Below are positions 881 through 55,395 of a stretch of DNA of 64,000 nucleotides, in pieces (position 1 is the stretch's first letter; every line of letters starts with the position of its first letter). Origin of the DNA: Blastocystis sp. Blastoise (taxonomy: Eukaryota; Protista; Bigyra: Opalinata); NCBI GenBank assembly GCA_039096225.1, contig JBBPEB010000002.1, forward strand, positions 124,001-188,000. The letters are read 5' to 3'. The translations under genes and the position numbers were made by a program. Under the pieces are notes generated by a model. The model did no database searches. It was not told the origin of the DNA and saw nothing but the letters and a program-made list of their open reading frames with translations.

Positions 881-1501
881 ATTCTTTAAGAACTTCTGAA
901 AGATGTTTTTTCAATTGGTTTTATATTGTTTTATTCATTTTTATATATTATATATATACAACTATAAATATATCCTAATTATATGTAATAATTGAAATTA
1001 TTAATTATATTAATTAATGATATAAATATTGCATTAATTATTGAAACATTTGTTTTAAATCTTTTATTAAAATTCATTTTTAACCATACTCTGGAAAAAT
1101 AACTCATTCTAGACTGTCTCTACACGTTTCGTTTTAAACTATAAATACTAATACAATTTACTAGTCATATCAGGTGAATGTTAGAAATATTTTATGAGTA
1201 TTCATCTATTCAATACTTGAGTTTGACCATTTTTGATATAATAACGATTTGTTCTAATTTATATTGAATATATATATATTTTTGTAATATATATATAATA
1301 TATATTAGTATTTCTATATTTATCATAATATTTCATTAAATAACTACACATTTTTTTAATGATATTATTAGTAACTGTCTTTAATAACTGTACTGTTGTG
1401 TATAAATATAATAATAAAACAAAACAAATTAAATAACTAAACATAAATAATAATATACTTTAAAAGACCGCCATTTTTTATTTATCCATCATAATCATCA
1501 A

Positions 1502-16184: not shown

Positions 16185-16229
16185 TTATACATATGTATAT
16201 ATATATAATATAATACTATAATATATATA

Positions 16230-21409: not shown

Positions 21410-21457
<48 letters not shown>

Positions 21458-22127
21458 GATGTATACTCTCTTTTAGTTTTTTCACTAATCTATTTACTTC
21501 CATGACCCCAAGGTTACTAACATTATCTGATACTATTATATCAATTTGATTATATGATTTATCCAGTTTATTTGAAAACCTGTTCATAATATAGAAACCA
21601 TTAACTGATGATATAGTATTTTCACAAATGGCGTTAGTAAACAGAACGAAGTCCTCACTTACTTCTTTTTTAGCGTCTAGTTCTACTTTTAACTGTATAT
21701 AATTATCATCATTCTCACATGTTGATATAATATCTTTTCCATATTCTGATTTAATTATTTCTTTCTTATTATCAATCATATATGCTCTTATAATATCTAA
21801 ATATTTTATATAGAAAAGAAGACACTCAAAATATGATTGCCATCTTGTAGAAGAGTATCTAGGAATAGTAGCTGCTAGTGAGTCATGTTGCTTTATAAAC
21901 AAATGGAGTTTCCCTCTTTTTATCTCTGCTTTGCTGAAATATTTATTTATGTTTGAAGAGAACTTATTAGCGTATATAGTTTTATCTCTTAGTTCTCTAC
22001 ATACTATATCTAGAATATGGCAAATACAAGGTACACGTTCATGATTATAGAAGTATCCAAGTTGCTCGTTACAGTATCTTATCATGGTACTATCATTATC
22101 TGTATGTATATATAAATATTTTCATTA

Positions 22128-25100
22128 TCTATATTATTAATATCCTTAATTTAGCAGCCCAAAAGTACGGTGTCTCACACACTTTCACCTTTATTGACTT
22201 TGTTATTAACTTTTATAAAATAAAAATAACATCATAAAAACCGGAACACAATTCTGAAAATGACTGTTAAAGAAATTTTTCGAAAACTCTAAATTTCTGG
22301 CTAAAAAACGCAAAAAACCATTTTCGCACAAAATTTTAACCAAAATTATTGGATTATTTTTATTTTAGCCAATATTCTTCATTTTTATAAAAACACTTAT
22401 TTTTCCATTTTCATTTTTTATTGTTTTCTTATTTTTGCTATATCACTTCACATACTCTATATTTATTTTTATAAAATTGACTTTTATTGACGGGTTGGTC
22501 TTATAAATAGTTTTGACGGGTAAATTTGTTTATATTAAGAACTTGACAACATATCAATACACACATCACTAACTTTAAACTCTAAAATGGTTTCAGTTGT
22601 CATGATAATGACCTCAACTACTCTGTAACAACAATAATTCCTTTAAATAACAACAAAAGACAAACTGATATCCAACACATTTCTTCTTTATAAACTTATT
22701 TGAGTTTATTTAAGTTATTTAGAATCAATACATGTCATTAGTATGTCTTTTAGTTGTTTAAAATGTTTTAATAAGAAAATATTTGATAATAGAAATTTTG
22801 ATGTTTTGATAGTATAGTTTGTTATTCGTCTTTCTTCTTGAGTTTTGGGTATTTTTTAAAAATAAAAGCATAATCATAATTAGGATAAGCTATTGCAGAT
22901 ACATATTTTTTATTTTATCTAAATATTTAATATTGACTGAGAAACATTCATTTATATGAAAAACATAAAAATGAAAATTTTCAAAAAAGGGTATAGTTTG
23001 TTATTGTGATTTCTCAATCAATTCTTGATAAAATAAAAAAGTTAAAACATATTTAGAAACTAGACATGTCATAGCAGATACATGTTTTTTATTTTTTTAA
23101 TTAATAAAAAACTCAGGTCACAAGAGTCAATAGTTGAACTCAATAAATAAATGACTTTTGAAATTTTTGTCAAAAATTTTTCATTTGTTTTTTGTTAATA
23201 TTCTCATCAATAATTAATATATTTGACATTTGACACTATATTGAATCACTACATATCAAAATAAACATATTTTACAATTTTATTTTGTTTTTAAAAGACT
23301 TTGACAACAGATCACCAGACAATGTTAACTTAATAAACTCTTAAAACGTTTTAATTAGTGCTGAGAATCACGCATGGACACTATATGTCACTTTTTTACA
23401 AAAGTTAAGACAACATGTTAGACTGATACTGACAATGTTTGTCTTAAGAAGTCAGTTATGAGTCATTATGAGTTGTAAATGTTATAAATAGTGTTTTAAT
23501 AAATAAATATGCTCTTATTAGTCTTTAATTAGTGAAATAAATCGTTTAAAAGAAGAAAACATTTTTGACACTATAGTTTATTTTGACAATTTTTCCATCA
23601 ATATTAATTTTTAAAAAATAAATAAAACCTATTTATAAACTAGACAACCTATAGTTTATAAATTTATAAAAATATTATCAAAATATAAAATAACTTTTGA
23701 GATAAAAAATTATATATGCAAAACATAAAAAAATTAATTTTTGAAAAAAGGGTATACTTTATAACATTAATTTCTCAGTCAATATTTAATTATTTTATAT
23801 AATTATAACAAATAAATATAGAGAATAAAACATATTAATTATATTATTTTTAATATTTAAAATTAATTAAGAAATGAGTTTAGTAGAGTCAATAGTATAA
23901 CATGTTAAAAAACTGAAAATTGAAAAATCATTTTTCTAAAAATTTTCTGAAAGTTGACAAATCAAATTCATATTTGACAATTAATTTTTACATTTTTGAA
24001 AAATAGAGTATGTATCTATTACATATGTAAAAAGAATGGTCAAAAATAAGTTAGACGAGTGTATGAGTATATGCACATGTTGACTCATAATTTTGAAAAA
24101 AGTAGTTAAATATGTCCTAAACCACATATCAAAGCAATTCTATAAATATTATCACTTTATAATGAGTTTAAAGGATAAAATAATTTTGAATTGTCTGTTT
24201 GACTGTCTTAAGTGAAGAGATTCAATACACTTTTTATAAAAATGAGTATTAGAGTGTTTAATGTTTATAATAATAAAAGAATTGTTTGAAATAAAGGTGG
24301 TTGTGTGTTTGACCAAAATGTTAAAATGAGTCTATTTTTTAAAAATGGTTGTAATAAGTATGTATAGAGTGTTTTTAGAGTGTTTCATATTAAAATCTAC
24401 AATAAATAAACATTTTAAGTTGTTCAAAAAATTATTTTTTTAGAATTACAATAGTTAAGTCAAGAGATTCAAGTCACTTTTTATAATAATAATAAATAGA
24501 CTTATTATAGAATATAAAATATTAAAAATTAGTTTAATTAAACATGGTTGACTGTTTGATAGGAGTGTTAAAATGGGTAAAAAGATTTTAATTGTTTCTA
24601 AAACTGTATAATACGTTTTTATGTCACTAAATACAAAATTATTATTGTTTAAAGAATGTTTTTTGTCTTTCAAAAGAACTCATTCTTTGTAATTGTGACT
24701 TTAAACAAAAGAGATTCAAGTTATTTTTTACAAATTAAAATAACAAATTCAATACATGTGTATATTAGCATAAAATTAGTTAAAATAAAAGTGAGTATAT
24801 GTATTTAAAAACGTTCAGTCTTTTAGAGTTTTTTTATGATAACTTATTTGTTTTAGAAGCTATATTGTATGTACAATAATAAAAGTTTCCAAAGTATTTA
24901 AATCTATTTAGTTATGAAATGAAATGTAATTTTTGTTTTATATTTTAGTTTTTATTTCTTATTTCTAGAATGATTTTGATAACACTATAAAAATTGAATT
25001 AAATTTGAATTAATTAATTTTAAATAATGAAAAGATAATTTCTCTATAAATATTCTCTTTTACTTAAAACGAATAGATTCTATTAATGATAAATATTAAA

Positions 25101-26184
25101 ATAAGACTCTAATTTTTTTGTTTATTATATAAAGTAATAAATATCTTTTAATTATTAAGAGTACTTTTGTATTAATAATTCAAACTAAAATAAGTATAAT
25201 AAAAGAAAAATTATAATATTTATCAAATAATATCAAGATATGATTACTATTTATATAATTAAACATTTATTAATTGAGAAAAGCTGTATAATAAAATTTC
25301 TAAAATATTTATATAATAGTATATATAAAAGGAAAGGATAAAATATAAAAAAACAAATAGATATCAAAATTATAATATTTTAAAAATAAAACAAAACAAT
25401 ATATGAAAAGAATAAAAAAGAATATATAATATTTTTTTAGACAAGAGAATAAGCTATTTCTCACAATAATAATTATATAGACTAATTCAAATAAAACATA
25501 AATATTTAAAGGTAGGGTATAAGTGATAATAATATGTTTTAAAAGAAAAAGTATTTTATAATCATATTGATATTATTTAAAATACTAAATATTTATAAAA
25601 CTAAATGAATTGATAAAATACATAGAAAGTTATAAATGAAATAACAAAGAAAAGTGAATTAATATTGAAAACTAAAAACTAAATAGAAATAGAAATAGAA
25701 ATAGAAATAGAAATAGAAATAGAAATAGAAATAGAAATAGAAATAGAAATAGAAATAGAAATAGAAATAGAAATAGAAATAAGATCAAAAATAAAACACA
25801 AGAGTTAATTAATTATCATTGATAAACAATAAATATATATAGTCAATAATAAAAATGGCTAAAAAGAATATTAAAAAAAAAAAGGAAATAATACTCAAGA
25901 ACATATAGAATGTTAAGTAAGAATTATCAATATGTATGAATTAAATTATTTAAAATACTAAATTGAAAATTAAGATTAGAAGATAACAATTAAAAGCAAT
26001 TGAAATAATATTTTATAAAATATGAAATAGTTTTAATCCTAAAAAAAAATAAAAACAGAAATGAATAACAAAAACATAAGAATAAATATTCATTTTTTAA
26101 AATTCAATGTAAGATATAACAATTGAGAGATAATAATTATCTAAACTCAAGCGTAGGCTGGCGTAGCCAGTCGTGAAACGCTTG
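22128..26184 (+). mobile_element. Non-autonomous Helitron family C, copy 1
   Basis: A|TCTATATTATTAAT start; hairpin ggctggc-gta-gccagtc then CTTG|T; clean A|T insertion without TSD. Confidence 0.88.
25681..25780. repeat. (AAATAG)n array inside Helitron C
   Basis: Direct reading; variant array at about 38058-38240. Confidence 0.9.
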
Positions 26185-27474
26185 TATTCTTTAAAACATT
26201 TTGTAATTATTTTTTGATAATCTATATGAGTAAAGCCACTCATTTCATATACACCTAGAAGGAACACATTCTTTGAATCAAGAGGCTTTACAAGGATGCC
26301 AAATACTTCTCTTCCTCCTTCATCAGTGGTACCATCAATAAACATCTCAATTTTTCTATTAAAAAGTATTATTTTTAGCTTTTCTTTTTCTATATTATAT
26401 AGTTTAGGAATAGTAGTATTGGATAGTGTTCTTAATGTAGGGATATCATTACAATTGATTATATGTCTAACAGCGAAATATTTATATTCCTCTGAATCTA
26501 GGAATCATAAAGGACTATATATTTATATAAGAAGTATAGCCATATCTTCACCAATATTTGTATTTTTACATTTATTTTTTATTTCATTATTTTCTTTTTT
26601 TCTAGTTTCAAAATGTTGCCTATTTATTATATGTTTTTTTGTTTTAGATGAGAGATTATGTTTGAAGAATTATTGTATAGATATGATTGTTTACAGCACT
26701 CACAAAGGATCTTATTATCAACTGGCTTTAAGCAGCATCTATCTTGGTGAAAACGGTTTTCTGGATCATCAAAAGTCTGTAATCACCTTTCAAGCGTCAT
26801 CTTATTGTTATGTCTTTGATTTATAGAAGTTTTCCTTTCTTTATTTTTTTCTCTAATTGCTTCTGACATTTTCATTACGGTTTCCTAAATATGAATATTA
26901 CTATTATTTTCTTCCACGAGTTGTTGCGTCTCCTGTTGGTTATTCTGCTGCTATTCATCATTTATATTATTATCTTTTTCACCATTAATGTTCTGATTTG
27001 TCGATGTTTTTCTTGTATTGTTTTCAGAAATGTTTTTCTTCTGTTTTCGATGTATTATATTAATTTTTTCTGTGTTTCTGTTGCATTCCATTCTTTTCTT
27101 TTTGGATGCTATAATTAATTATGTTAAGTTTAAAAAATTTAAGTGTAAAAATAGTATACATTGTTTTTGTTGTTTATTCATAATAAAAAATCTTATTTAA
27201 AAGTTTAATTCGTTATAAAAATGGTAAAAGAAAAATAAGTTAAAATTATTTCTTAAATCTAAATAGATATGGCTATTTTTCTTTATTATTCATGAAATAT
27301 TCCGTCTAATAATGGGTTTTTTATTTCAAGATAATTTTGGCTTTTTTTTGCATAATATTATAGAAAACTAGAAACGTTGTATCTTCATAAAAACTGTGAA
27401 TACCAAATATTTTTTTATAAAAATACCATATTTAGTACTTCATATATACATAACTGCTATTAATATATTAGAAT

Positions 27475-30149
27475 ATATATATATGAGAATAGGCAAAAAA
27501 ATTCCCATTGGTCAGTTTTTGGAAAATGCATTTGATTGGCTACTATATACTATAGTTTGTCGCCGCAACTCCTCTAAACTTACGGGGAGTTAACTTTTGA
27601 GTGAAACACAGTTCAATAGGATATAACATGTAGTTGTGCACCATATATTTGGTTAAGCGATATAATTAATAATTAAAAAGATATTAATAAAAGAACAGAA
27701 AACATGATTTTTGAGTCGTTTTTGATTGGCTCTTTGGGGTGACCCCGATAAAAATTGTTGACCAGACAATTGGAAAATAAACATGGGGTAAACTTGATTT
27801 TTTCTCAATCCCACAATATACGTTATCCGTGTTTATTCTTTATATTTATCTATTTTTTAATACTTTTTCATATTGAACACGTGAGGCCTTAACGGTCAAA
27901 TTTAGATTCTTATTTTGACATGATATTCTGATTCAGGAGGTCGAAAAACCTAGGTGTACCAATTTTGAGTTCCTGAGGACGATTTTTGAGTGATCGATAT
28001 TTTCTTCGATCTTCTTATAATGGACTAATATTGTATAATGGTAATCAATAGGTCCTCAAACTACTATAGTTAAAACAAGGTCTTAAAATAATGAGTTTGA
28101 GTGTCACAATTTTGAAAAATGTGAATTAAGTGGTCTTAGAGGATAAGATTCAATATAATGACTTTTGTTTAGTAAACTAGAGATAATACTCTATTCTATG
28201 TTAAAAGGAGAGTCAAAATTATGATGGTCAAAGTGTATCACCAAATGACAAAATGTGTCTTAAAAAGTAAAAGTGTTTGCATATGTGTATAGAATCATGT
28301 ATTAAGTATATTCTATGAATAAGAACTTTAAATAAATAGTTTAAGGTTGCCAAATTTAAATAAATGTGTAAAACATAGTCTTAAACTATGAATAAAAAAT
28401 TTATAGATTTTAATTAGTGTACAGCTGTAGTAGCTCTACAACATATCAAAAGTGCAAAGAAAATAATTTTTAGAGAGTGGATGTGTGAGGTGTTGTGAGA
28501 GTTATTAAAAATTTATTTTTACTTCAGTTTATTTAAAATCGTGAATTTCGTGCACTGTAGAAAAATTGAGTCAAAAAATCAACTCTAAGGGTCTTAAATT
28601 TAAAAAAATGTAAAAATGAGTGACTTAGAGGACGAGATTCAAAATAAGAGTGTTTATTCATTAAACTAGAGTGTATGAGCTATATTATGTTAAAAGAAGG
28701 GACGAAAATGTTTTGATCAAAGTGTATGACCAAATGGTAAAGTGTCCTTAAAAAGTCTAAAGTGTTGACTAATGTGCTTATAGAGTCATATAAAGTCTAC
28801 TATGTAAATATTAGCTTTTAAAAATATGTTTAAGCCTTTCAATTAGTAAAAATATGTTCAAAGAGAGTCATAAAATGAGAGTTTTAAGAAACGAGATATT
28901 GTTCAGTATACACTAAGAGACACTCTACAACATATCAAAAATATAGCAAAAACTATTTTTAGAGACTGGATGTGTGAAGGGTTGTGAGAGTTATTGAAAA
29001 AATATTTTTACTTCAGTTTATCCAAAATCGTGTTTTTGGAACACTGTAGAAAAATTAACTTCAAAAATCAACTCTAAGGGTCTTAATTTTAAAAAATGTG
29101 AAAATGATTGACTTAGAGGACGAGATTCAAAATTCCCCATCGCTTTCATATAATTAGACAACACACTCTATATTATGTCAAAAGGAGGGATGAAAATATT
29201 TTGGTCGAAGTAAATGAGCAAATGCAAAAGGTTTACAAAATGTTTTAAAGTGATCACCAATGTGTAGCTATGGTCATATTAAGTAAAGTGTGTAAATATT
29301 AGCATTTAAAAATGAGTTTAAGTGTGTCAACTTTTCATAATGTGTCAAAAAGGGTCTTTAAGAAAGAGATTCAAAACATTTACTTTTATTTAATAAATAG
29401 TATGATAAACTCTATATTATATCAAAAGACTGACGGAAACTGTTTTGATACAGTGGATCTTGAATGGGTAAAGTCTATTTAAAAGTTACTATTTTGAGTT
29501 ATTTATGTTAAAATCATTATTTGAGACGAATATAAAAATATTAACTTTTTAAATAATGTTTTAGTTGTCAAAGTTAGAATGAATGCTGACTTTGTTATGA
29601 TTAAAGCTTTCTAATTCTTTTAAAAAGTATTAAAATGAGTTAAAATTATTATATTATGCTTATTTAAATGAATTTTATGAATTAAAAATACTTTACACTA
29701 CTTCACATTGGTACTCATTTCTAAAGTTATTGACTTTAAAAACTCAAAGAATGTTTTAAACAGTTGTTTAATTATTACTAAATACAAAATATATTTTAAA
29801 AATAAATTGTTGTGAAAAAATTGACTTAGAAAGTGATTTTAATTAAACAATAATTTTTTCTCTTTTTTAATTTCTTATTTAAAAAGTCTAAAATAATCTT
29901 ATATCAGGAATTGAACCTGATTACAATCATAAAATAATTGTAACTCTCCATATAGAGTATAAGAAATTAATATTTAATAAATAATAAATAATATATATAA
30001 TATATAATATATAATATATAATAAATGACTCATATTAAAAACTATATATATATAATATATAAGATAAAAGATAATAAATATTTTTTATATACTCTTTATG
30101 CAGCCGCGGTCCGGGGCCGTTAGGCACTGGACCTGCGGCGTGACCCTAG
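27475..30149 (+). mobile_element. Helitron family D, copy 2 (5' TC lost)
   Basis: Near-identical to D1; ends in hairpin-CTAG at 30149. Confidence 0.88.
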
Positions 30150-30549
30150 TTAGAATATATATAAATAATCATTATAATCAACATAAATAAAAAGAGATAA
30201 ATAATCCATATTTTATAAACATTTTTATAAATATACTTAAATAATTATAAATATAAACAAAAGAATCAGTCAAATTTCATTTTTTCATTATTTTTTGCAT
30301 ATTTTTGTATATGCAAAATCCAAAACTGGAAGACGAAATCCAAAAATTTGACAATCCCTACAACAACGTCAAATACAGAATAATTAATATAAACAAAGAA
30401 TTGTGTATTTTTTTCCACTTAATTATTTTCTCAATAATTTACAACAATAAAAACATAAGCATTTTGCCAAGTTTATCGCGGTATTAATAGTACTGAAAAA
30501 TAGACTGTCCTGAGTCAAGTTTTACAATTTAAGGCGTCCTGAGTCAATT

Positions 30550-31036
30550 ATCTCAAATGGAAAACTCTGGTCTGACTGTCCATGATACAAATAGGCTCGG
30601 CTCAATTTTTCAGTGTAAAAAGAAATAAATTTTTGATTTTTTGACTGAATTTTGGTTCTAAGTCATAGAGACAAGCTTATTCACTTTTAATTACATTTAT
30701 GACTATAAGAGGGTCTAAACTTCAAACACTACTATAAAATTTAAAAAATTTGGACACCATGAATTCACAAAATTAACACTTTAAAATAAAGAAAAACGTT
30801 TTGGGTATTATGTGACCCTCTGTAAATAAACAATAATGTCAATTCTTTATTAAAATTTGTCTAATAGGGTTTTAAAGTCTAAATCAAAAGTCGACTGAAA
30901 AAAGTGTCAAAATTTTGTCAAAATCCACGATTTTTGCCTAAGTCTATGAAACTACTCAATTTTTAGTGGCTGAACAAATTTTGAACTGAAATAAGCCAAT
31001 CATATGATTTAAAATGATGAAACCAGAATAACAGTG
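30550..31036. mobile_element. Right end of a CACTG (CACTA-type) element abutting the viral insertion
   Basis: Homologous to 53450-53890 and ends ...CAGTG at a similar distance. Confidence 0.6.
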
Positions 31037-31054
31037 ATATATTATTACATCACA

Positions 31055-31674
31055 ATTTGCTCTCAGCTCTCACTCACAAAGATATTCACGGGGCGGCTAA
31101 ATATAAAGAACGGTATATACGGGTAAAAGCCGCGAATGTAAAAAAACTTTCCCGTGAATACACATGAACATGTGCATTGAGTTGAATTTCTCAAGTAGTA
31201 ATATATTAGAAAGGTGGTTCGAAAGAATAGAAAACAAAGACAATATAGATATAAAAAATCAAGATCAACTAATTGTAAGATTTACTTCTGACTTTCGAGT
31301 CAAATACTCTTATGATGATCTTTGTTTCGTGTTTCGCTGAGAGCAAATTGTGATGTAATAATGCGTCATCGCTCAATTTGATTGGAGGAATCTTGAGTTT
31401 CTCCGATCGGATTGGATAAGTTGTGTTTGGTTGTAAGTGTAATTCTTAATATTTATAATTAGGGTCCCAAACCTTTAAATTGAAATAACTTTTTATCCAG
31501 AAGGAATTAGACCCTAAAAATAGCAAAAAAAGAGTTTTGGGAATGGGTACAATTTAATTTTTATTGACTGGTGATTAGGTCCTGACAAGATATAAGGGCA
31601 TATTCTGTATTTTTAATTATGCTGACGTGGTTTATATTTATTTTATTTTATAATTTATTTTATAATTTATTTTA
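31055..31674. repeat. Viral common/control region, copy 1
   Basis: Matches 36100-36720; the only difference I noticed is one T in a homopolymer. Confidence 0.92.
31344..31380 (-). promoter_or_regulatory. Putative rolling-circle origin hairpin with nonanucleotide CATTATTAC
   Basis: Minus strand caaattg-agc-gatg-acgcattatta-catc-a-caatttg; fits NANTATTAC. Confidence 0.7.
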
Positions 31675-31697
31675 TAATTTTTAGTAAAAAAAAAAAA

Positions 31698-33423
31698 ATG
31701 CAAAATAATAATACTAACCCTGTATATTAATAAATATATTTAAGTTATTGTTATATAGAACCGTCAGTCTCAATATTGGACTCTTACTTTATTTGGTGAA
31801 GACCTTTTACATTTTAATGAAGTAATCCAACCCAGTTGGAATAGTAATGGTCTTCCATTTGAAATAGTATATAAATATATTATATATATATATATATAGA
31901 ACTATGTTGCTTTATCAAGAGAAGTATCTCCGACTACAAACAACACTCATGTACATTTATATATGGAAATGAAAAAAAGGTTAAGAAGAAATCAGATAAT
32001 AAGATTACTATCCTTAGAGCATACTGATGTAAGACCAAGGGAGTGGTCACGAGAGGCAACTTTAATTTATTTAAGTGAAGTATATATTTATATATATTAA
32101 TTTAATTATTTAATTATAAATATTAGATAAATGAAATAGATGAATATTACAATACAAGCAATACACTTGGATATGGAGCAAACTTTCAAAATGGAATGCA
32201 TCGCGATTTAATAAATGCTTCTACTTATAATGGTGTTCTTTATAATATGAATAATAATAATAGCTTTGCTAGAATAGACCCAATATCTACAGCTCCTATG
32301 AATTTTACTCATAATAAAGTCAAATATTCTAAAAACAAAAAACGTATATACATTATAATTTATATTATATATATAGATCCAAAAAAAATATCTGAAGAAG
32401 TTGCTTCAATGATAAAAAATGGTTGTACTTATGAAGATATATGGGAAGAATATGCTTCCTTTGCCCTATTACATTCAAATAACATAAAAAAAGCAATCTA
32501 TGACTTTAATACCAAAAAAAGAAATACTGCACCTATAGTTTTATATTTATATGGGAAAACTGGAGTAGGTAAAACTTATACAGCTAAAAAAATATGTGAA
32601 CTAGGCGAAAATGAAGATGGTAAAGGATCTTACTACATGAAGAATGGAGATATTAAATGGTATATATTATATTATATTCTATATTTATAGGTGGGATGGA
32701 TACAAAGGTCAGTTTGGCATCATTATTGATGATTTTAGAAAAATCTATAATGATAAAGACCTTCTTCGTATTTTAGATTATTATGATGTAGGAGTGGAAA
32801 CAAAAGGTTCAACAGTAAAAATCACCTCACCTCTAATTATATTTACGTCTGATAGAAGCTTAAAAGAAAATTTCAAAGAACTTTCAAATGATGAATTAGA
32901 ACAACTACTCAGAAGATTCTACAATGAATATGAATTACTTGAAGATAATACTATTGATTTCAAATATAGCAAAGCTAAAGATGATTACATCAAAGGTATC
33001 AGACGTAATCTACTATATAAAGATGATGAAACCAAATATATACAAGCCGCTGATATTATGATGAAAATTAATAATCAATACAAACCAACAGTCAATATAC
33101 CCATACAAATAGAACTAGATAATGAACTTACCCTTAGCTCACCTCCAACAACTCCTCGTATATCTCTTCCTACTATTGAAATAACTACTCCTAAAAAAAC
33201 AAATTTCTGTCACAAAAGACCTAATACTCCTATACCTATTCTAGATTTATCATCTTCAGATAACGAATATAGTAATGAACTCATTGATCTCACTTTCACT
33301 GATAATGAAGAAGACGATGAAGAATATTCTGATCATAATAAACCTATAAGTCTTTCATGGGATAGTAGCGAAGATGATTATTGTATACTCCCAGACTCTC
33401 AAAACATTAAACAAGAATTCTAA
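31698..33423 (+). CDS. rep: CRESS Rep1 (HUH endonuclease plus SF3 helicase), 6 exons: 31698-31721, 31759-31866, 31900-32079, 32127-32343, 32377-32659, 32691-33423; 514 aa
   Basis: Motif I YWTLTL, motif II THVHLY, motif III IYLSE, Walker A GKTGVGKT, KWWDGY restored by splicing, Walker B IIIDDF, motif C IFTSD, Arg finger LLRRF. Confidence 0.93.
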
Positions 33424-33545
33424 ATTCTATATATTTATTATCTATTGAGTTTTTCTGATTTCATATCTTTTCTCAGTTATATCTTTGTTTTAAAAACTTA
33501 TTTGTTTTGTTATATAATTCATATGCAACTCAACACATTGTGCAA

Positions 33546-33608
33546 TTGTGAAATTGTGTATCTGTGAAAATGTGAAATTGTGATTTTGTGAAATTGTGAA
33601 ATTGTGAA
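33546..33608. repeat. Tandem 8-bp TTGTGAAA-like repeats between the convergent rep and cap 3' ends
   Basis: About 8 imperfect copies. Confidence 0.75.
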
Positions 33609-33708
33609 ATAATATTTGTGTTGAAGTGCAGTGAGTGTGAGTAGTAATAATAAAAATTGAACAAAACAAAATTAATTTAAGACAAATAAAAATATATATA
33701 CACATAAA

Positions 33709-34947
33709 TTAAAATTTAGTTAAAGTATTTATTCCTTGAACCCATGGAGAAACACCAGGTATAGCACTAGCAGCTGTAGCTATATTTTGAACAGTTTCAC
33801 TATTCCAAGACCTTTTAAATTTATTCCAGAAATCAACTACACCATTCCACATAGTTTGAAAATCATTATAAGAAGAAGGATAACAAAAATCTAATGATTG
33901 AGTTAAAATAGCACAAGCATAAAGAGCTTGTTCATCTAATAAAGGAGGATTCTTTAATAATGGGAAATACTCACTATTATAAGAAGGAACTAACTCATAA
34001 CCATTACATATTTTTAAAGTAAATGGATTGTTAAAATTTGAACCTTCAACTCTAATAATACCAAAATTAAATCCAGTATGTAAGAAAGAAGGAACATATT
34101 CAGTTACTTCTATAGGTAGCATAACCTTAGTAAATATTCTTTTAGACATCCAAGTATCATAATCAAATATATTCATTTGAGCACTAGCACTTCCTAATAA
34201 TCCATTAATAAAATATTCATAACTATCTCCTGTATCAAGTTGTTTCTTTTGAAATATAGGTGGCCTATAATAATTCTTATAACCATAAGATAAATGTTGA
34301 GGCATATAACAACCATCAGGGACATTAAATACTTTATATTTTGGAGAATAAGAAGTAATAGCATTAGAATCTAAAGGAATATAAGGATTCATATAACTAT
34401 TAAAAGCTTGATAAGATAAATCTTGAGATTCTACACTACCACTAGTAGTATACATAGTATCTACACAATACGGTACTTGAATACCATATATAAGACCTTG
34501 CATATTATTAGTATTACCAGCCCATTTTAATGTACAACCACGAAATAATCCACGACCTAAATTAAAATCTTCTTGATTTTGCTGCCAATTAGGATCTTTA
34601 ACACCCATAATACATGTTTGAGATGATGATGTTTTATCCACAGTATTATACCAAGTAAATGTACCATAAATCAAAATAGGATAAGTAGACCATGGTGTTG
34701 CAATTATAGTAAAATTATTATATAAATCTGGGACAACAGCTCTAGGATCTACAAATGTATCTTGATCTATAGATATATTAAACTTATTATTTAAAGTATA
34801 AATCATGTGGGTTTGGCCATCAGGTACACCGTCAACAGGTATAGAAGTATCATCACAAGGATTAACGTAACGCTTAAGATAAAGGGCTCCCGCAGAGGAA
34901 CTAGCCATTGACAACTTGTCATTTATTATAGTACCTAAACTAGACAT
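33709..34947 (-). CDS. cap: Capsid protein resembling nodavirus/tetravirus self-cleaving capsid precursors, 412 aa
   Basis: N-terminal YLKRYVNPCDDTSIPVDGVPD and C-terminal YPSSYN-DFQTMW...AASAIPG resemble, from recall, the LKCAFAPPD...GIPD and gamma-peptide regions of nodaviruses. Confidence 0.75.
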   Translation of the reverse strand: MSSLGTIINDKLSMASSSAGALYLKRYVNPCDDTSIPVDGVPDGQTHMIYTLNNKFNISIDQDTFVDPRAVVPDLYNNFTIIATPWSTYPILIYGTFTWYNTVDKTSSSQTCIMGVKDPNWQQNQEDFNLGRGLFRGCTLKWAGNTNNMQGLIYGIQVPYCVDTMYTTSGSVESQDLSYQAFNSYMNPYIPLDSNAITSYSPKYKVFNVPDGCYMPQHLSYGYKNYYRPPIFQKKQLDTGDSYEYFINGLLGSASAQMNIFDYDTWMSKRIFTKVMLPIEVTEYVPSFLHTGFNFGIIRVEGSNFNNPFTLKICNGYELVPSYNSEYFPLLKNPPLLDEQALYACAILTQSLDFCYPSSYNDFQTMWNGVVDFWNKFKRSWNSETVQNIATAASAIPGVSPWVQGINTLTKF

Positions 34948-34989
34948 TTAAAATAATTTATGCAAAATAACAAAACATATTTATAAGAA

Positions 34990-35095
34990 AACGAATTTAT
35001 ATATACAGATAAACTGTCTCCTAATACGAATTTATATATTCAGATAAACCGTCTCTAAAAACAAATTTATATATTCAGATAAACTGACTCCATTA
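34990..35095. promoter_or_regulatory. Three 35-bp direct repeats in the divergent cap/ORF3 intergenic region
   Basis: a(c)gaatttatata-t(a/t)cagataaac(t/c)g(t/a)ctc repeated three times. Confidence 0.7.
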
Positions 35096-35145
35096 ATAAT
35101 TATTAATCAAATCATATCATATTTTATTTATTTTATTTACAATAA

Positions 35146-35892
35146 ATGCCTTATAGATACTCATCCAGATATAGAGGTACTCAACGTACCTATTATAGAA
35201 GAAGAAGATATAATAGAAATTCAAACGCTGTAACCACTTATAACAATGCAGTTAATTCTTTTAGAACAAATTGGGCAACTATCGCCGAAGATACTACCGT
35301 AGGTGGAATCGCAAATAAACACAAACTTAGGCACCAATTAATGCTTGTAGCCAAAAAATGTGGAAGAATGTACGTAGCTCAAGCTAGAACACTATTAACA
35401 TCAACAGATTATACTATACCAATTCAAATATTTATACCAAGCGCTACAGGTGACGACGAAAATGCAAAGAACATTAAAAAACTCTGCAACTCTACTATCA
35501 AACAAATTATAAACACAGTCTACACAATTAACAAAAACGGAATCAAAAAAGAATATATATATAGACTAAACGGTTTACTCTATACCTATCCATTCACTGC
35601 AGAACCACTCGCCTATGATTTCACACTACCCATCTACTATGCATCCGATGATTTTACAAAAGCAGAAACAATACTAGTTTTTATATACCAAATGGGAGGA
35701 ATCAACACATTTCCTATTATGTATAATATTTCAGAAGGAGGACAAATGACTTTCAGAACAGAACCACAATATAATACCGTTATCACTGCATTGTTCGACG
35801 AAGCTACAAGATACGTTGCCGCTGCACAAACAGCAGGAACATCACCTATGGTATACTATGCTCAAAATCTACCAGATAGATTACGACACTAA
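35146..35892 (+). CDS. Viral ORF3, 248 aa, Arg/Tyr-rich N-terminus (second capsid or nucleic-acid-binding protein)
   Basis: Intact intronless ORF starting MPYRYSSRYRGTQRTYYRRRRYNR, typical of CRESS capsid arms. Confidence 0.75.
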   Translation: MPYRYSSRYRGTQRTYYRRRRYNRNSNAVTTYNNAVNSFRTNWATIAEDTTVGGIANKHKLRHQLMLVAKKCGRMYVAQARTLLTSTDYTIPIQIFIPSATGDDENAKNIKKLCNSTIKQIINTVYTINKNGIKKEYIYRLNGLLYTYPFTAEPLAYDFTLPIYYASDDFTKAETILVFIYQMGGINTFPIMYNISEGGQMTFRTEPQYNTVITALFDEATRYVAAAQTAGTSPMVYYAQNLPDRLRH

Positions 35893-36099
35893 ACATACTA
35901 ACACTACAAACATTAATTCTTGTCTAATATAATAATATATAATTAAAAACACTGTTTTGTTAATTCTTTTTAAAAAAAAACATTAAAAAAAAAAAAAAAA
36001 ATCGAACACCAAACTCGACTGCGCGACCATACTCTTTGTGAACTTCTACAATAAAACAAGATAAGGATCCGAGAGTACTATACAACCACAAAACTGAGC

Positions 36100-36720
36100 A
36101 TTTGCTCTCAGCTCTCACTCACAAAGATATTCACGGGGCGGCTAAATATAAAGAACGGTATATACGGGTAAAAGCCGCGAATGTAAAAAAACTTTCCCGT
36201 GAATACACATGAACATGTGCATTGAGTTGAATTTCTCAAGTAGTAATATATTAGAAAGGTGGTTCGAAAGAATAGAAAACAAAGACAATATAGATATAAA
36301 AAATCAAGATCAACTAATTGTAAGATTTACTTCTGACTTTCGAGTCAAATACTCTTATGATGATCTTTGTTTCGTGTTTCGCTGAGAGCAAATTGTGATG
36401 TAATAATGCGTCATCGCTCAATTTGATTGGAGGAATCTTGAGTTTCTCCGATCGGATTGGATAAGTTGTGTTTGGTTGTAAGTGTAATTCTTAATATTTA
36501 TAATTAGGGTCCCAAACCTTTAAATTGAAATAACTTTTTATCCAGAAGGAATTAGACCCTAAAAATAGCAAAAAAAGAGTTTTGGGAATGGGTACAATTT
36601 AATTTTTATTGACTGGTGATTAGGTCCTGACAAGATATAAGGGCATATTCTGTATTTTTTAATTATGCTGACGTGGTTTATATTTATTTTATTTTATAAT
36701 TTATTTTATAATTTATTTTA
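36100..36720. repeat. Viral common/control region, copy 2 (origin hairpin at 36389-36425)
   Basis: Direct repeat of 31055-31674. Confidence 0.92.
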
Positions 36721-36744
36721 ATATTTATTTGATATTTTATAAAT

Positions 36745-37623
36745 ATGAGTGATAATAATAATGTTGTATTTATATAATTATTATATATATATGTATATAG
36801 TCACCACAAAGTCAATATTGGTTTTGTACACTATTCGGTGATGACCGAGATTTCTTTTTTCAAGAGACTCTACCTAATTGGGAGGAAAATGGTTTACCAC
36901 AGGAAATTATGTATGTGGCGTATGTAACTGAACCTAATAACGAAACACATAATACGCATACACATTTATACATTGAATTAACAACAAGAAGAAGAAGAAA
37001 TAAGGTCCGAAGAATGCTTCAGTTGGAACATACAGATGTTAGACCTCGTGATGGAACTCGTGAAAACGTACTATATTATTTATCAGAGGTATATACATAT
37101 ATATATGTATATATATATATATATAGATAAATAATTTACATGAAATATATCGTAACCAAAATACTAGAGGCTATGGAGCTATAACAAGTGGTACTCATCG
37201 TGATTTATTTGCAAGTCAAACTTTCAATGGAAGACTGTATAACTTAGAATCAAGAAACATAAGTAGTGAACCTTCTCCGTTATCACCTGGTCCTATTAGA
37301 TTTATTAAAACAGATGTTAAATATTATAAAAATAAAAAACATCCGAAAAAAAATTCCGAAGAAGTAGCTACAGCAATAAGGAATGGTAATACTTACGATG
37401 CTATATGGCACGAATTTCCGGGATTTACACTCTTACATTCACAAGCAATTAAGAGATTAATCTATGATTTTAATGAAAAGAAAAGAGTAGAATCTCCAGT
37501 AGTTATATATATATGGGGCGAAACTGGTTTGGGAAAAACCTATACAGCAAAAAAACTTTGCGAATTAGGTCCAAACAAATTAGGTGATGGTTCATATTAT
37601 TTAAAGAATAGCGATATAAAATG
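36745..37623 (+). pseudogene. rep: CRESS Rep2, divergent paralogue; exons 36745-36765, 36801-37088, 37127-37623; truncated in the next intron by Helitron C
   Basis: YWFCTL, THTHLY, YYLSE, GETGLGKT; frame open until the donor at 37624. Confidence 0.9.
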
Positions 37624-37646
37624 GTATATTAATATATTTATATATA

Positions 37647-39402
37647 CAAGCGTTTCACGACTGGCTACGCCACCTACGCTTGAGTTTTGATAGTTGTCAT
37701 CTCTTAATTGTTATATTTTATGTTTTTTTTTAATATTATGTTTATTTTTATGTTTTTGTTATTCATTTCTATTTTTTTTATTTTTAGGATGAAGACTATT
37801 TCATATTTTATAAATTATTATTTCAATTGTTTTAGTTGTTATCTTCTATTGTTTAGTTATTAGTTTAGTATATTCTAAATAATTCAATTCATACTTTATT
37901 GATAATTCCTATTTAACATTTTATATTACATTTTTTTGAGTATTATTTCCTTTTTTATTTAGTATCATTTTAGCTATTTTTATTATTGATTATATATATT
38001 TATTGTTTATTAATAATAATTGATTAGCTCTTGTGTTTTATTTTTGATCTTATTCATATTTCTATTTCTATTTCTATTTCTATTTCTATTTCTATTTCTA
38101 TTTATATTTCTATTTAGATTTCTATTTAGATTTCTATTTAGATTTAGATTTAAGTTTAGATTTATATTTATATTTATATTTATATTTACATTTATATTTA
38201 TATTTATATTTATATTTATATTTATATTTATATTTATATTTCTATATTAATTCACTTTTCTTTGTTAATTTATTTATAACTGTATTTGTAATTATAAATT
38301 CATTTAGTTTTATAAATATTTTATACTTTAAACAATATTATTATGATTATAAAAAATTTTTTATTTTAAAACTTAATATTATCAGTTATATCTTATCTCT
38401 AAGTATTTATTTTTTATTTTTAATTATTCTATATAATTATTATTATGAGAAACAACTTACTCTTTTGTCTAAAAAATATTATTTATTCTTTTATGAATTT
38501 TCTCATATATTATTTTATTTCATTTTAAATTATTATCATTTTTATCTCTATTTGATTTTTTATATTCTATCATTTCTTTTTATATATACTATTATAAATA
38601 TATATATTTAATATTTTATTATACCCCTTTTTCGTATTAATAAATGTTTAATTATATGTAATAGTTGCTATAGTTTAATACTATCAGATTCAAATGTTCA
38701 TAATATTATTCTTTTTTTATTACTCCTATTTCAATTTGGATTTTTAAAAACAAAAAATATTTTTAATAATTAAAAAATATATATTATTCTATATAATCGA
38801 TAATAACTCATAGAGTTCTTTTATAAATATTTATCATATATAGAATTTTTTTTATAAAAGAAAAAAGAATTATTTTTAAAAATTATCTATTCATTTTTTA
38901 TAATGTTTTCAAAATCATTTCATTAAATGAAACGAAAAACTAAATATAAACCAAAAATTACATTCTATATCATAAATAGATTTAGTACTTTAAAATACTT
39001 TACCTATTGTACATGAAATAAAGTTTATAAAACAAATAAGTTATTTTTAAAAAACTCTAAAAAACTTTTAACATTTTTTTCAAACACATTCACTTTTATT
39101 AAAACGAATTTTATATTCATATACATATATATTGAATTTATTATTTAATTTGTAAAGAATAACTTGAATCTCTTTTGTTTAAAGCCACAATTACAAAAAA
39201 TGAGTTCTTTTGAAAGACAAAAAACATTCTTTAAGCTATAATATTTTTATATTTAGTGACATAAAAACGTATTATACTGTTTTAGAAGCAATTAAAATCA
39301 TTTTACCCATTCTAACATTCCTATCAAACAGTCAACCATATTTAATTAGACTAATTTTTAATATTTTATATTCTATTATGACTCTATTTATTATTATTAT
39401 AA
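37647..39402 (-). mobile_element. Helitron family C, 3' portion
   Basis: Reverse-complement CTTG/hairpin end at 37647; homologous to about 24480-26184. Confidence 0.85.
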
Positions 39403-42342
39403 CTAGCGGGTGGCATCGGCTTCGCCGATGCTTCGTAACCTTTAGAGCTTTACAATGTCTTCCCTGACTTTTGTGACAATTGCCATGACAATAGCTGACT
39501 GTCACTTTCAGCCAGACTTAAATTGACTTAGTCATAAAAATATAAAATTACACTGTCAAAAATAAATATTTTGTCACAAATTTTGGTGACAATTGCCACG
39601 TGGCAATTTCGTCCAGTGACAGGGAAGACACTGGAGCTTTATAATTTATATAAATATTTTTTTAAATGTATACTATCATATAGATACATAAAAATACTTT
39701 TTAAAGTAGTTTATAGTTTATAATAGTTTCATTAATGACACATATCATAATAGTTTCTTAATATAAGTTACATTTATCTATGAAAGCTATTATGATATGA
39801 AAATAAACAATAATTCTATTTATTATTTCAAGTTATTCTGCTTAAATTATTCATTCTGGAATGTTTATTTATTAATACATATTTTTATTTTATTCGTTTT
39901 ATATAAAAAAAATAATTTTATAATTTTATGCTATCAGTGACTAAATCAAAATGTTTATATATATTCTTTACTCTATTTATTCATTTATCAAATTGATTTT
40001 ATGGTATCATGCATATATTCTATCTAAATAGATCTTATTTAGATTATATAGTTTTTTAAATGAATATATATGTTTCGTGATATGAAATAGTAGTAGTTAA
40101 ACTTTTGAATTTTTAAAATTTTAATTTTTTTTTTTTTCCTATAAAAAACAACGCGTTGTATTTTATAGATAAAAAAAGAATTAAAATTTTAAAAATTCAA
40201 AAGTTTAACTACTACTATTTCATATCACTAATATCTACTTATCTATATATAATAAAAATGCATGATAGTTTATGAATAAGAATTTGTATTCATATTTTCT
40301 TTTTTAATAATAGATAATTTTGTTTTTATATTCATAAAGAATCCATTTCATAATAAATATGTCTAAAAGTAATGGAACCAAAATTATGTTTGCTTATATT
40401 TTAAAAATTTATAAATTAAATGATTAAGTTATTCCATATTTATATATAAAGCTACTTTTAAAAGAACACAAAAGTATAAATAAAAAAATAATTATTGATT
40501 TTTTAAAATGAATTCTTATGATATGAAAATATATGTCATACTTATATATGATATATACTAAAAATAATTTTTAGTTTGACTAATATAATTTTTCATTAAT
40601 ATAAATAAATATATATAATCCTTGTAGTTATAGAATAATTTTTCAGTCAATTAATAGTGTTTATAGGGATACAATAATCAATAAACAGTATTAAGAAATT
40701 ATTCTTTTTTTGAGAGACGTGCCACTTTGAAATTTTATTTCTCAGTCAATTTTTATTTTTAAAAACTAATTTTTACAAATTTATAATTAGAATAAAACAT
40801 ATTATATATTATATAAATATTGACTTTATTGATAGAAAAATGATGGTTGACATTGACCTTAGTTAAAACAATAAAAATTAAATTTTTGAAAAATATCAAA
40901 ATTTCTTTTTCATTTTTGACCCCGAGATTCAACGATATTTTATATTTTGACTTTATATATGTATGTAATATTATAATAACTATTAATATGACTTTTAAAA
41001 AGTGTGTTAGGACGACTTTTCTTGGTACAAAGTCGCAATTAACTTTTTTAACCTTTTTTAAAAAGCATTTAAAGATATGAAATATCATAATGTAACATAT
41101 AAGGCATCCTTACACCAAATATGAAGTCAAAACTCGAAATTAAAGAGGTCGAAATCTGCCGATACACCAACTTTGTTGTCATAAATATGCAATAATGACA
41201 GATTTGTGTATAATATAGGTCACTGTATTCATAAATGTAGTCATAAATTGATTTTATGAGGGTCAACCAAACAGATATCCACTCATTCTTGTCTTTAAAG
41301 AAACCTGATGGGTTCAATGAGTGGCGAATTTTATCTAAACTACAAATATTAAGTATAAAAATTTTTATTAAGAGTAAAATGATTTCGATATCTCTTCTAC
41401 CTTTTTATTTTAAAAATGTGTTCAAATAATTCATAAATATAAACATCTAAAATAAACCCTGTAACGTTTAATAATTAATAAAATAAAAAATGTTGACAGA
41501 ACACGCAATTGAATTTTTTTGTTAATTTTTCAACATGCTAAAAACAGGTTTTAATGACTTTTAGCATGGTTTCATGAGTTATCATGATGATCCAGATAGT
41601 TTTCATTAAATTTTAAAAGGGTCAAAAGAGAATGTGTCCGATATCTCAAAACTTTGTGGATCAAATTTTTTCAAAGCTTCATACATTATCATTATTTAGG
41701 TTATTTTATGCATATAGGTTAAAGTTAAGTCTATTAAGTCACTTTGATAACTGATTATTTGTCTAAATTGTTTCTTCTATTTTAAAAGTTGTTTTTATGT
41801 GTGGCGAAAAATGTTATAAATTAAAAAATAAATTTATAAATAATAAATATAAAAAAATAAATAAAATATATAAAAAGAAGAAATTAAAAAAGAAAAAGAA
41901 ATTTTTAAAATAAAAGATAAAAAAAAATGGATAACAAATTTACAAAATAAAGTTTTGCAAAAGAAAAAGAAATATAATTGAATTTTTTTTGAAAAAATGA
42001 AGACAAAATGATTAGAAGTATAAACTTTGACCATGTCAATAAATTTTTGGCGCGAAAATAGACAAAGATATTTGTGTTCTTTTTATCCAATAAGAATGAG
42101 TTTTCAAAAATTTTTAATCGATTTCATAGGACGGCCAACTTGCTAACGGTCGGCAAAACTTCTCGGACTATTTTGAGGCCTTAGATATGGAATTTCTGAA
42201 AAATTAAAAAAACTAAAATAAAATTTGGAACATAATATATAACATACTAAAAGGATATTATCATAGCCTTAACCATCATAGAATAAACGGTCCGTGAACT
42301 TGAGACACAAATATCCAACTTCTATTGCCTTTATATATAAGA
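39403..42342 (-). mobile_element. Helitron family A, copy 3 (contains the hAT MITE at 39453-39633)
   Basis: Near-identical reverse complement of A2. Confidence 0.92.
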
Positions 42343-45300
42343 TATAGAAATGTTGTGGATATACTACAGACTTTATAGAGTTACTAGATAATAATCAAAT
42401 AAGAGAATCTACCTTTAACTATTACAAGTCCAAACAAGGTGATACTAGTAATGAAAATGTAACAATCAACGATCAACATTAATTACTTACAAGCTCAAAT
42501 AATGAAGTTACTGCTAAGTCTTCTAAAAATAATAGTCAAAAGAAAACATATAAAGAATTTTTTGAAAGAACAAATATCGATGAAGAAAATGTAAATAATA
42601 TCAATGATGATTATGAAGAAGAAGTTGAAGAACATGATATAGCTCCTGAAGAAATTGAATTATTTAATCATACAAGCGTTTCACGACTGGCTACGCCAGC
42701 CTACGCTTGAATCTAAATAAACATAAAAAAATAATTTGTAAAAAGACTATCTTTTCATTATATAAAAATTATTTATTTCAAATTTTGTTTTGTTTTATTA
42801 ATATTATCAATAATGGTTTCATATTTTATTAATATTATCAATAATCGTTTCATAAAAAGAAAATTAAAAAATAAAAATTAACAATATATAAAATAAAGAT
42901 TACATTCTATTTCATTAGTAAATATATTTAAATACTTAAAAAACTATAGCTATTGTTTATAAAATATAGTTTATACAACAAATAAGTTATCATAAAAAAA
43001 CTCTAAAAAACTATAACATTTTGAAATACATATACTCACTTTTATTAAAACGAATTTTATATTAATATACATATATATTTAATTTATTATTTTAATTTAT
43101 AAAAAATAACTTGAATCTCTTTTGTTTTAAGTCACAATTACAAAAAATGAGTTCTTTTGAAAGACAAAAAACATTCTTTAAACAATAATAATTTTGTATT
43201 TAGTAAAGAATAAATGTATTATACTGTTTTAGAAACAATTAAAATCTTTTTACCCATTTTAACATTCCTATCAAACAGTCAACCACATTTAATTAGACTA
43301 ATTTTTAATATTTTATATTCTATAATACGTCTATTTATTATTTTTATAAAAAGTGACTTGAATCTCTTGACTTAACTATTGTAATTCTAAAGAATCAAAT
43401 TTTTAAACAACTTAAAATGTTTATTTATTGTAGATTTTAATATAAAATACTCCAAAAACACTCAATACTTTCTTATTCTAACCATTTTGGAAAAATAGAC
43501 TCATTTTAACATTTTGGTCAAACACACAACCACCTTTATTTCAAACAATTCTTTCATTATTATAAACATTAAACACTCTAATACTCATTTTTACAAAAAG
43601 TGTATTGAATCTCTTCACTTAAGACAGTCAAACAGACAATTCAAAATTATTTTACACTTTAAACTCATTATAAAGTAATAATATTTTCAGAATTGTCATG
43701 ATATGTGATTTAGGACACATTGAACTACTTTTTATAAAATTATGAGTCAACATTTCCAGTTTGTCATTCACTCGTCAACTCCACTTTTGACCATTTTTTT
43801 GAGAAACGCAATACATATAATGTCTAGTTTTCAAATATGTAAAAATTAATTGTCAAATATGAATTTGATTTGTCAACTTTCGGAAAATTTTTTAGAAAAA
43901 CGATTTTTCAATTTTCAGTTTTTTAACATGTTATACTATTGACTCTACTGAACTCATTTCTTAATTAATTTTAAATATTAAAAAATATATTATTAATATG
44001 TTTTATTCTATGTATTAATTTGTTATAATTATATAAAATAATTAAATATTGACTGAGAAATTAATGTTATAAAGTATACCCTTTTTTCAAAAATTAATTT
44101 TTTTATGTTTTGCATATATAATTTTTTATCTCAAAAGTTATTTTATATTTTGATAATATTTTTATAAATTTATAAACTATAGGTTGTCTAGTTTATAAAT
44201 AAGTTTTATTTATTTTTTAAAAATTAATATTGATGGAGAAATTGTCAAAATAAACTATAGTATCCAAAATGCTTTCTTCTTTTTAAACGACTTATTTCAC
44301 TAATTAAAGACAATTAAAAACAAATTTATTTATTTTAAGCTTATTTATGACATTTAACACTTATTAAGACTGATAACTGACTTTTTAAAACAAACATTGT
44401 CAGTATCAGTTCAACATGTTGTCTTAACTTTTGTGAATGAGTGATGTATAGTGTTTATGAATGTTTATATATAGTAATTGAAACATTTTAAAGTTTATTG
44501 AGTTGACATTATTTGGTGTTTTTTCACATTATAAAAAATAATATCACTATTTAATACCAATACTTTATATCTGAGTATTACATGATCATATACACAGAAA
44601 TAATACAAAATCAAATTGTTTAAATAGACTTTAACATTTCGAGATACACTCGACCCACTGGTAGGCATTTTCACGGATATCAAAAAAGCGACAAATGAGA
44701 AAAAGTAAACAAAAAATTTTAAGACACTTTTCAGTCATAGCGAATAGAGTGGCCAAAAAATAGGCTAATTTTGTCGGGTATGTTGTTTGTTTTCATTCGT
44801 TCAGAATTCTTTTAGAAACGTCATTTTTTATTTATTTATCGTTGTGTGAATGATAATAAAAATATATATAACAAAAGACAATAGATAATAATAAAATAAT
44901 TATAACAATAAAAAGAAAAGAAAATAGCAATTATTTGAGTTTGTTTTGAGTTGATTGTGAACCATTTTGAGGACTATACATATAAAAATAATAGAACTAA
45001 TAATAATATAGATAATATATAATATATACCTTCTAGTAGCACCTGTAGACAACCCAGTTAATAGAAACTACAACTATAAAAATAAATGTATAAATAAATA
45101 TATAATATAGCAATATACCTTCAACAATCAAGCAGCTTTTGGCCAACGAGAAACACTGAGAACACCTAGAACCTATATAAAAATTAAAATAGTTAATTGC
45201 AAAAATAATAATAATAATATATACCTTTGAAACCAGATAGTGAAGGACCAAGGAGACCTGAGACAGAAGTTGAACCTATAGAAAATGATAAATTATAAAA

Positions 45301-51060: not shown

Positions 51061-51101
<41 letters not shown>

Positions 51102-55390: not shown

Positions 55391-55395
55391 TCACA

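Follow-up and report, generated by a model that had tools for sequence, protein, structure and literature searches.

A 64,000-nucleotide (nt) stretch of contig JBBPEB010000002.1 from Blastocystis sp. Blastoise (GCA_039096225.1, positions 124,001 to 188,000 of the forward strand), hereafter the window, carries what we read, with a probability of about 0.78, as an integrated copy of a circular single-stranded DNA (ssDNA) virus of Blastocystis, likely of an unnamed lineage, whose capsid has a predicted noda/tetra/Lake Sinai fold. A first-pass annotation of the sequence had proposed an endogenous circular Rep-encoding ssDNA (CRESS) virus with an RNA-virus-type capsid and a protist host, probably undescribed, and this core proposal is strengthened by our finding of the same gene set on free-standing contigs. 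We judge the element to be an endogenous copy of a chimeric and probably undescribed ssDNA virus lineage, which probably ranks at the family level, and the viral unit likely sits among transposons in a Blastocystis chromosome.

The unit is bracketed by two copies of a direct repeat spaced 5045 nt apart, and itself measures 5045 nt. The repeat is identical over 560 nt (31055-31614), followed by a 1-nt indel, after which identity resumes to 31673/36719; the repeated part, about 620 nt in all, is non-coding only. Between the copies lie rep (+), cap (-) and the open reading frame (ORF) ORF3 (+), the complete and uninterrupted set that had been annotated, with the frames of cap and ORF3 open and that of rep open only after the splicing of five predicted introns. 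The GC content of the unit is 28.6% against 23.7% outside, and both flanks of the viral DNA are dispersed host repeats. The right-hand one, which truncates a second rep gene, matches 24481-26187 at 77%, and its hairpin end, which we take to be Helitron-like, is found three more times in the window. No Rfam family matched within 30000-39500. The features of the locus, in window coordinates, are:

30555..31037, no strand: dispersed host repeat of the left flank, 78% to 53446-53886; the alignment continues to about 31037, stopping just short of the viral DNA
31041..31067, plus strand: inverted 27-nt origin copy at the left junction, including the nonanucleotide; reverse complement of 31336-31362
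31055..31673, no strand: common non-coding region, copy 1, with a structured segment, a putative origin and the rep promoter region (repeat comparison, folding)
31343..31380, minus strand: putative rolling-circle origin 1, with the nonanucleotide (31355-31363) inside a weak interrupted stem
31698..33423, plus strand: repA, HUH endonuclease, superfamily 3 (SF3) helicase and acidic tail, 514 amino acids (aa); profile of 11 Rep homologues, E 7e-48
31722-31758, 31867-31899, 32080-32126, 32344-32376 and 32660-32690, plus strand: predicted GT-AG introns of repA
33537..33610, no strand: 8-nt tandem array, 9.2 copies, like the right arm of the origin; candidate Rep-binding iterons
33709..34947, minus strand: cap, capsid of 412 aa, predicted noda/tetra/Lake Sinai (peptidase A21/A6) type (sequence, profile and structure-model comparison)
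34988..35092, no strand: 35-nt repeat in three copies, lying where cap and ORF3 start in opposite directions; candidate elements of a bidirectional promoter
35146..35892, plus strand: ORF3, 248 aa, Arg-rich, head-to-head with cap
36100..36719, no strand: common non-coding region, copy 2, with putative origin 2 (repeat comparison)
36745..37646, plus strand: repB, a paralogue with 268 aa present; predicted introns 36766-36800 and 37089-37126; cut inside an intron starting at 37624
37647..39402, no strand: host repeat truncating repB, with further copies of its hairpin end near 10478, 26184 and 42673

The capsid matches Lake Sinai virus capsids by sequence alone (E 4e-6). A search of 1.84 billion representatives returned 33 matches. 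Peptidase_A21 was recognised in 20 of the 30 members aligned and A6 in 7, the window capsid itself matching neither at E 0.01. When the capsid profile was compared with PDB, all 13 matches were RNA-virus capsids (best E 1.1e-48), with no bacilladnavirus chain among them, while the C-terminus alone gave only chance-level PDB matches. An AlphaFold model built on the alignment reached a predicted local distance difference test score (pLDDT) of 77 and was used in place of the single-sequence model (pLDDT 29.6). In VIA-align comparisons this model gave Z 29.1 to Nudaurelia capensis omega virus (NwV; root-mean-square deviation (rmsd) 4.3, 319 residues aligned), 28.4 to Lake Sinai virus 2 (LSV2) and 27.8 to Flock House virus (FHV), with a range of 24-29 over the noda/tetra chains, against 19.8 (rmsd 3.3, 266 aligned) and 17.5 (rmsd 3.4, 245 aligned) to two bacilladnaviruses and 8.4 or less to tombus/sobemo chains. 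The Foldseek ranking agrees, as does the Atlas comparison (template modelling (TM) score 0.69), and the structural alignments with noda/tetra/Lake Sinai chains have 9-18% identity. Residue Asn361 is invariant in the 30 aligned rows and aligns in the model to the scissile-site Asn of FHV (363), NwV (570) and Providence virus (556), these residue numbers being those in the available part of PMC9892032; the most amphipathic 18-residue window starts at 363, placing an amphipathic helix after Asn361. The N-terminal arm has 19 residues of which one is basic, i.e. there is no basic N-arm. The capsid is thus predicted, from these models and profiles, to have the fold of noda/tetra/Lake Sinai RNA viruses, which agrees with the RNA-virus-type capsid first annotated.

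The spliced CRESS Rep that had been suggested is also recovered. The unspliced segment 31698-33423 contains 62, 21 and 51 stops in its frames, and cutting the five predicted introns (37, 33, 47, 33 and 31 nt) gives one 514-aa frame, the product of which matches the profile, built from 11 Rep matches without names, at the E-value given above; its nuclease part aligns to that profile at E about 5e-6, and the last exon has matches in PDB to CRESS Rep helicases of solved structure (E 5.7e-9 to 5e-7). The HUH motifs I and II are present (WTLTL and HVH in RepA, WFCTL and HTH in RepB), and RepA has the SF3 Walker A, Walker B, motif C and Arg finger; the motif names are those in general use for Reps and in PMC11903649. 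RepB is identical to RepA at 152 of 267 aa (57%), with 62.5% nucleotide identity over aligned codons; of the 152 residues in common, 65 are encoded by different codons. The repB gene has counterparts of repA introns 1, 3 and 5, and its continuity across the places of introns 2 and 4 gives independent support for those two cuts. It ends inside intron 5, at the start of the host repeat, and its remainder is absent from the window by tblastn. The first-pass annotation had likened the locus to a partial dimer; this picture has to be modified, since the DNA past the second origin is this paralogue and not a copy of the first rep, and only the non-coding part is repeated. With a different paralogue behind a shared control region, the locus comprises a complete unit followed by the beginning of a second genotype, not a plain 1.3-mer, and from its sequence it appears to be a recombinant or mixed concatemer with a common region. 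A rep with five introns would be unusual; 10.1101/687855 reports a single intron for the Reps of gemini/genomoviruses and another, separate intron for circoviruses.

Relatives were sought on metagenome contigs with an alignment of related capsids, which found three loci (L001-L003) among 107 candidates; the window capsid alone gave none among 19 candidates, prokaryote genomes none among 49, and the IMG/VR scans no relatives. The 5586-nt contig L003 carries a terminal repeat of 15 nt and an origin hairpin of 18 bp with TAGTATTAT (hairpin z -6.85). Its genes are those for a Rep (495 aa) and a capsid (382 aa), an Arg-rich ORF (228 aa) placed head-to-head with the capsid gene, and a fourth ORF. 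All four genes are also found on L002 (5098 nt), which, provided that its ends join, has the gene order and orientation of the window plus one extra ORF, while L001 (1852 nt) has a capsid gene converging on a piece of rep. The Rep frames of L002 and L003 are unbroken, and the GC contents of the three loci are 40-43%. The four L003 proteins fall in clusters of 43, 51, 52 and 29 members, in each of which the 15 members listed are all distinct sequences; 12 of the 15 listed for Rep have longest contigs of 5.4-5.7 kb, and no member has a descriptive name. In a 34-row capsid tree, the window capsid, P0016, P0018-P0024 and L001-L003 form one 12-row clade (support 98/95), which keeps a Shimodaira-Hasegawa approximate likelihood-ratio (SH-aLRT) support of 88 after 10 long or gappy rows are dropped; P0026 and P0031, with many short matched stretches, were excluded from the capsid alignments and trees. 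All 12 capsids of the clade have arms of 12-29 residues with 0-3 basic ones, compared with arms of 70-82 residues in the nearest armed group.

Several further observations concern these relatives. The fourth, large acidic ORF (L003:1805-3478 (-), 557 aa; L002:1553-2950 (-), 465 aa) has no Pfam match and is absent from the window unit, and its two versions are barely alike (E 0.05-0.06). At its N-terminus the L002 Rep (residues 42-69) has a RanBP-type zinc finger at E 2.8e-5, below the cut-off. RepA (residues 454-480) and the L003 Rep (residue 29) contain hydrophobic-Asp-Leu/Val-Thr/Ser motifs followed by acidic runs, which resemble SUMO-interaction motifs. The P0017 cluster, a related capsid lacking the arm, has 16 members on contigs that mostly measure 1.3-1.9 kb and may represent a capsid-only segment or an RNA-virus donor lineage. 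An L003-type Rep and capsid (P0089, P0134) lie on a 23,431-nt contig, which would be a concatemer or an integrated copy.

The nonanucleotide CATTATTAC occurs on the minus strand at 31355-31363 and, in the same sense, at 36400-36408, 5045 nt apart. The left end of the viral DNA starts at the nonanucleotide, and there a 27-nt perfect inverted repeat (31041-31067/31336-31362) goes beyond chance, as none of 200 shuffles reached 27 nt. Only the last 13 nt of this inverted origin copy are present ahead of the second repeat copy. The segment enclosed by the inverted repeat folds strongly (z -9.3; z -5.0 for the second copy; 60 shuffles). Two readings of the left end fit: a nascent strand, initiated at the nick, changed template at the 13-nt inverted repeat and became joined to the host's DNA, or the end is the remnant of a head-to-head copy. 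A single junction does not decide between the two. A further nonanucleotide lies at 33644, beside the 8-nt array between rep and cap; as a second origin it is unsupported, having no hairpin (0.0 kcal/mol) and a motif common by chance.

The third, Arg-rich protein of the first-pass annotation stands as an open frame of 248 aa with nine Arg/Lys among its first 30 residues. ORF3 has no match in Pfam, PHROGs, PDB (best E 0.1) or Atlas, and only itself in a 5.8-billion set. The protist host has been corroborated as well, in that NCBI gives the name Blastocystis sp. to P0001 and P0015, which are 1 and 3 residues away from the cap and ORF3 proteins of the window. Each has two accessions, three apart, from which we infer two more units, a head-to-tail pair, on a contig equal in length to the one that carries the window's proteins. 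The GC content of 23.7% and the intron lengths fit tortoise-associated Blastocystis, which has, in the available text of PMC10690189, 21-23% GC and introns longer and more variable than 30 nt; a similar 40-nt candidate intron occurs at 51101 in a host-like ORF.

A number of results weigh against this interpretation. The window capsid is only 23-24% identical to those of L001-L003, DNA context covers 4 of the 12 rows of the capsid clade, the closest relative, P0016, not being among them, and short arms also occur outside the clade, in 11 of 22 capsids. The Reps of the window and of L002/L003 fall into two widely differing types, and a single origin for them (support 61/47) is neither demonstrated nor rejected. 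In motif III, RepA and RepB have YLSE, keeping the Tyr and replacing the Lys of the usual YxxK by Glu, and the nuclease exon by itself matches no Pfam family or PDB chain, which marks the nuclease as divergent. The nonanucleotide pattern occurs at chance frequency (34 in the window against 39.85 expected); of the two same-sense origins with hairpin that had been annotated, the spacing and sense hold, but the hairpin alone is within chance (z -1.15, 28 of 200 shuffles equally good). In the capsid, Asn361 is followed by Asp, the residue also found at this place in Lake Sinai virus, for which PMC9892032 describes no self-cleavage, so maturation cleavage is no more than possible. Finally, ORF3 and the Arg-rich proteins of L002/L003 have no detectable similarity beyond the arm (hhalign probability 13.8%; z 0.28 and 1.56).

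Among known systems the unit works like a bacilladnavirus or a crucivirus, but it departs from both in the features that define them (Walker B, FP/PF, capsid type). With Bacilladnaviridae it shares a CRESS Rep, a noda-like capsid, a genome within 3.4-6 kb, opposed rep and cap and a stramenopile host (PMC13623192); at 5045 nt, with rep and cap opposed and a jelly-roll capsid at Z 17.5-19.8, it has the genome layout of that family, of which it could be a divergent member. However, the RepA Walker B is IIIDDF (DD), where the available part of PMC11903649 gives two glutamates for the family, and RepA lacks FP in motif I and PF at the Arg finger, as listed in the same portion of that source. Moreover, the capsid is much nearer to RNA viruses (Z 24-29) than to bacilladnaviruses, none of the 13 profile matches being bacilladnaviral, and it keeps the scissile-site Asn and the C-terminal amphipathic helix; rep is predicted to be spliced, the Arg-rich gene is separate, and the near-identical proteins come from Blastocystis sp. 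rather than from a diatom. Membership of Pecoviridae/CRESSV1, which infect Blastocystis, would account for the host genus and for endogenous Rep copies: among 38 Blastocystis endogenous viral elements (EVEs), 37 Rep-like and 1 Cap-like, CRESSV1 EVEs are included in the available part of PMC9615429. Unlike these, the window holds a whole three-gene unit with a noda/tetra capsid type and a larger genome, macochaviruses having about 2.9 kb and two ORFs in the accessible text of PMC13475009; we therefore regard membership of either named family as quite improbable. Cruciviruses are likewise ssDNA viruses with an RNA-virus-derived capsid, but theirs is tombus-like, whereas the window capsid reaches Z 8.2 with carnation mottle virus (Tombusviridae). 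The Naryaviridae and Nenyaviridae of Entamoeba are also gut-protist CRESS viruses with Rep/Cap module swapping and whole-genome integration (available part of PMC7493932), although their host differs. The capsids of Lake Sinai virus and of alphatetra-, carmotetra- and alphanodaviruses (Peptidase_A21/A6) share the fold, an N-terminal helix motif and the scissile-site Asn, but the window has a DNA genome with Rep and a capsid without a basic N-arm. Its capsid gene is neighboured by Rep and ORF3, and no significant RNA-dependent RNA polymerase match was found in the 16 stretches scanned; a weak Flavi_NS5 piece (E 0.08) lies in a recombinase ORF at 2009-2641. As for the origin expected in Cressdnaviricota, the nonanucleotide occurs twice in register, its hairpin being at the chance level described, and the relative L003 has the strong one. 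A literature search, whose coverage excluded most subscription journals and some supplements, found no description of this gene set, and BFVD holds Cressdnaviricota-labelled capsids at TM 0.45-0.46, with many entries without names; given both, an earlier deposit of a related genome is possible.

Three further explanations start from features of the locus itself. A capsid-bearing mobile element, moving by rolling-circle transposition within the host genome and swapping rep genes behind the shared control region, would account for the at least three near-identical cap and ORF3 copies inferred on one contig, for host-style predicted introns in rep (with the candidate at 51101) where the L002/L003 Rep frames are unbroken, and for a left end starting at the nonanucleotide, as Rep-mediated joining would give. 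Yet relatives occur as unit-length contigs in dozens of assemblies, the GC content of the unit is above that of its surroundings, and three intron positions are common to Reps only 57% alike, so the introns are old; we consider this explanation improbable. Separate circles with a common region, chained here as a repA unit followed by a repB helper or satellite, would explain the identical 620-nt region ahead of two different reps and the extra nonanucleotide at 33644 beside the 8-nt array, but that site has no hairpin and its motif is frequent, and L002 and L003 hold all genes on one contig, which makes such a multi-component virus distinctly improbable. An assembly chimera, in which the free virus of some other member of a mixed culture was assembled into a repeat-rich contig, is suggested by the repeats on both flanks and by the xenic nature of tortoise Blastocystis cultures (accessible part of PMC10690189); it is most improbable, as the copies differ mutually by 1-3 residues, RepB is cut exactly at a host repeat end of which the window has three further examples, the introns are of the host's style and the 560-nt repeat is short relative to long reads.

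If the locus is an integrated virus, as we prefer, the host spliceosome would join the rep exons, and Rep, acting as CRESS Reps generally do, would nick the nonanucleotide on the capsid-coding strand, as in L003, leading to rolling-circle copying of 31357-36401 (5045 nt). Judged by its fold and size, the capsid may form a T=3 shell, in which 5 kb would fit, and membrane entry would rely on the amphipathic helix at the capsid C-terminus. The lack of a basic arm on the capsid and the fixed head-to-head position suggest ORF3 as a DNA-binding partner; that its Arg-rich product binds and condenses DNA has, in our estimate, slightly less than an even chance. The locus probably derives from a longer-than-unit replication product, the shared control region suggesting that two co-infecting genotypes recombined just upstream of the rep start, before or during integration, and a host element would later have cut the second rep. 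As the unit between the two nonanucleotides is complete, release of a 5045-nt circle is possible on paper, although release today is doubtful.

Elsewhere in the window, the earlier statement that nearly every transposase is broken holds roughly, with the exceptions of an open, possibly intact 448-codon DDE_1 transposase frame (11437-12783 (-), E 4.7e-15) and a 2.9-kb repeat (16226-19172, 39401-42346 and 4680-7382), two copies of which are 99.86% alike and the third 91.6%, a similarity that points to recent transposition. A second multi-copy element occupies 13503-16214, 27476-30178, 55395-56812 and 62660-63995, with internal 244/489-nt subrepeats. Two transposase-like fragments at 26097-26504 and 21405-22121 (-), named by no Pfam family and presumably hAT-like, are separated by about 4 kb that begins with the hairpin end of the element cutting repB. 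A tyrosine-recombinase-like gene in two frames (1454-2641 (+); Phage_integrase E 3e-5, below the cut-off) we take to be Crypton-like.

The capture of an RNA-virus capsid by a DNA virus is a rare event, for which a 2026 taxonomy commentary, in its available part, gives only bacilladnavirids and cruciviruses as examples (PMC13595969). The lineage described here likely represents a third case, as yet without a name, of DNA viruses taking over the coat of an RNA virus, and one that keeps the scissile-site geometry would offer a direct test of how an RNA-virus shell adapts to DNA packaging. Icosahedral particles of 30 nm were long ago observed in Blastocystis and never identified, as told in the accessible part of PMC12835684; because those fractions contained double-stranded RNA, their link to this capsid family is loose. 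The fullest version of the story is doubtful: a family-level, widespread Blastocystis ssDNA virus lineage that arose by a third independent capsid capture, kept the membrane-entry helix, moved the genome-binding arm to a separate Arg-rich protein, swaps Rep modules behind a shared control region, still releases 5-kb circles from tandem chromosomal copies and may explain the old 30-nm particles. Through the endogenous copy the capsid family is tied to Blastocystis, the commonest protist of the human gut and a host that can be cultured, and a 5.6-kb virus without a name, present in dozens of public assemblies, thereby gains a candidate host.

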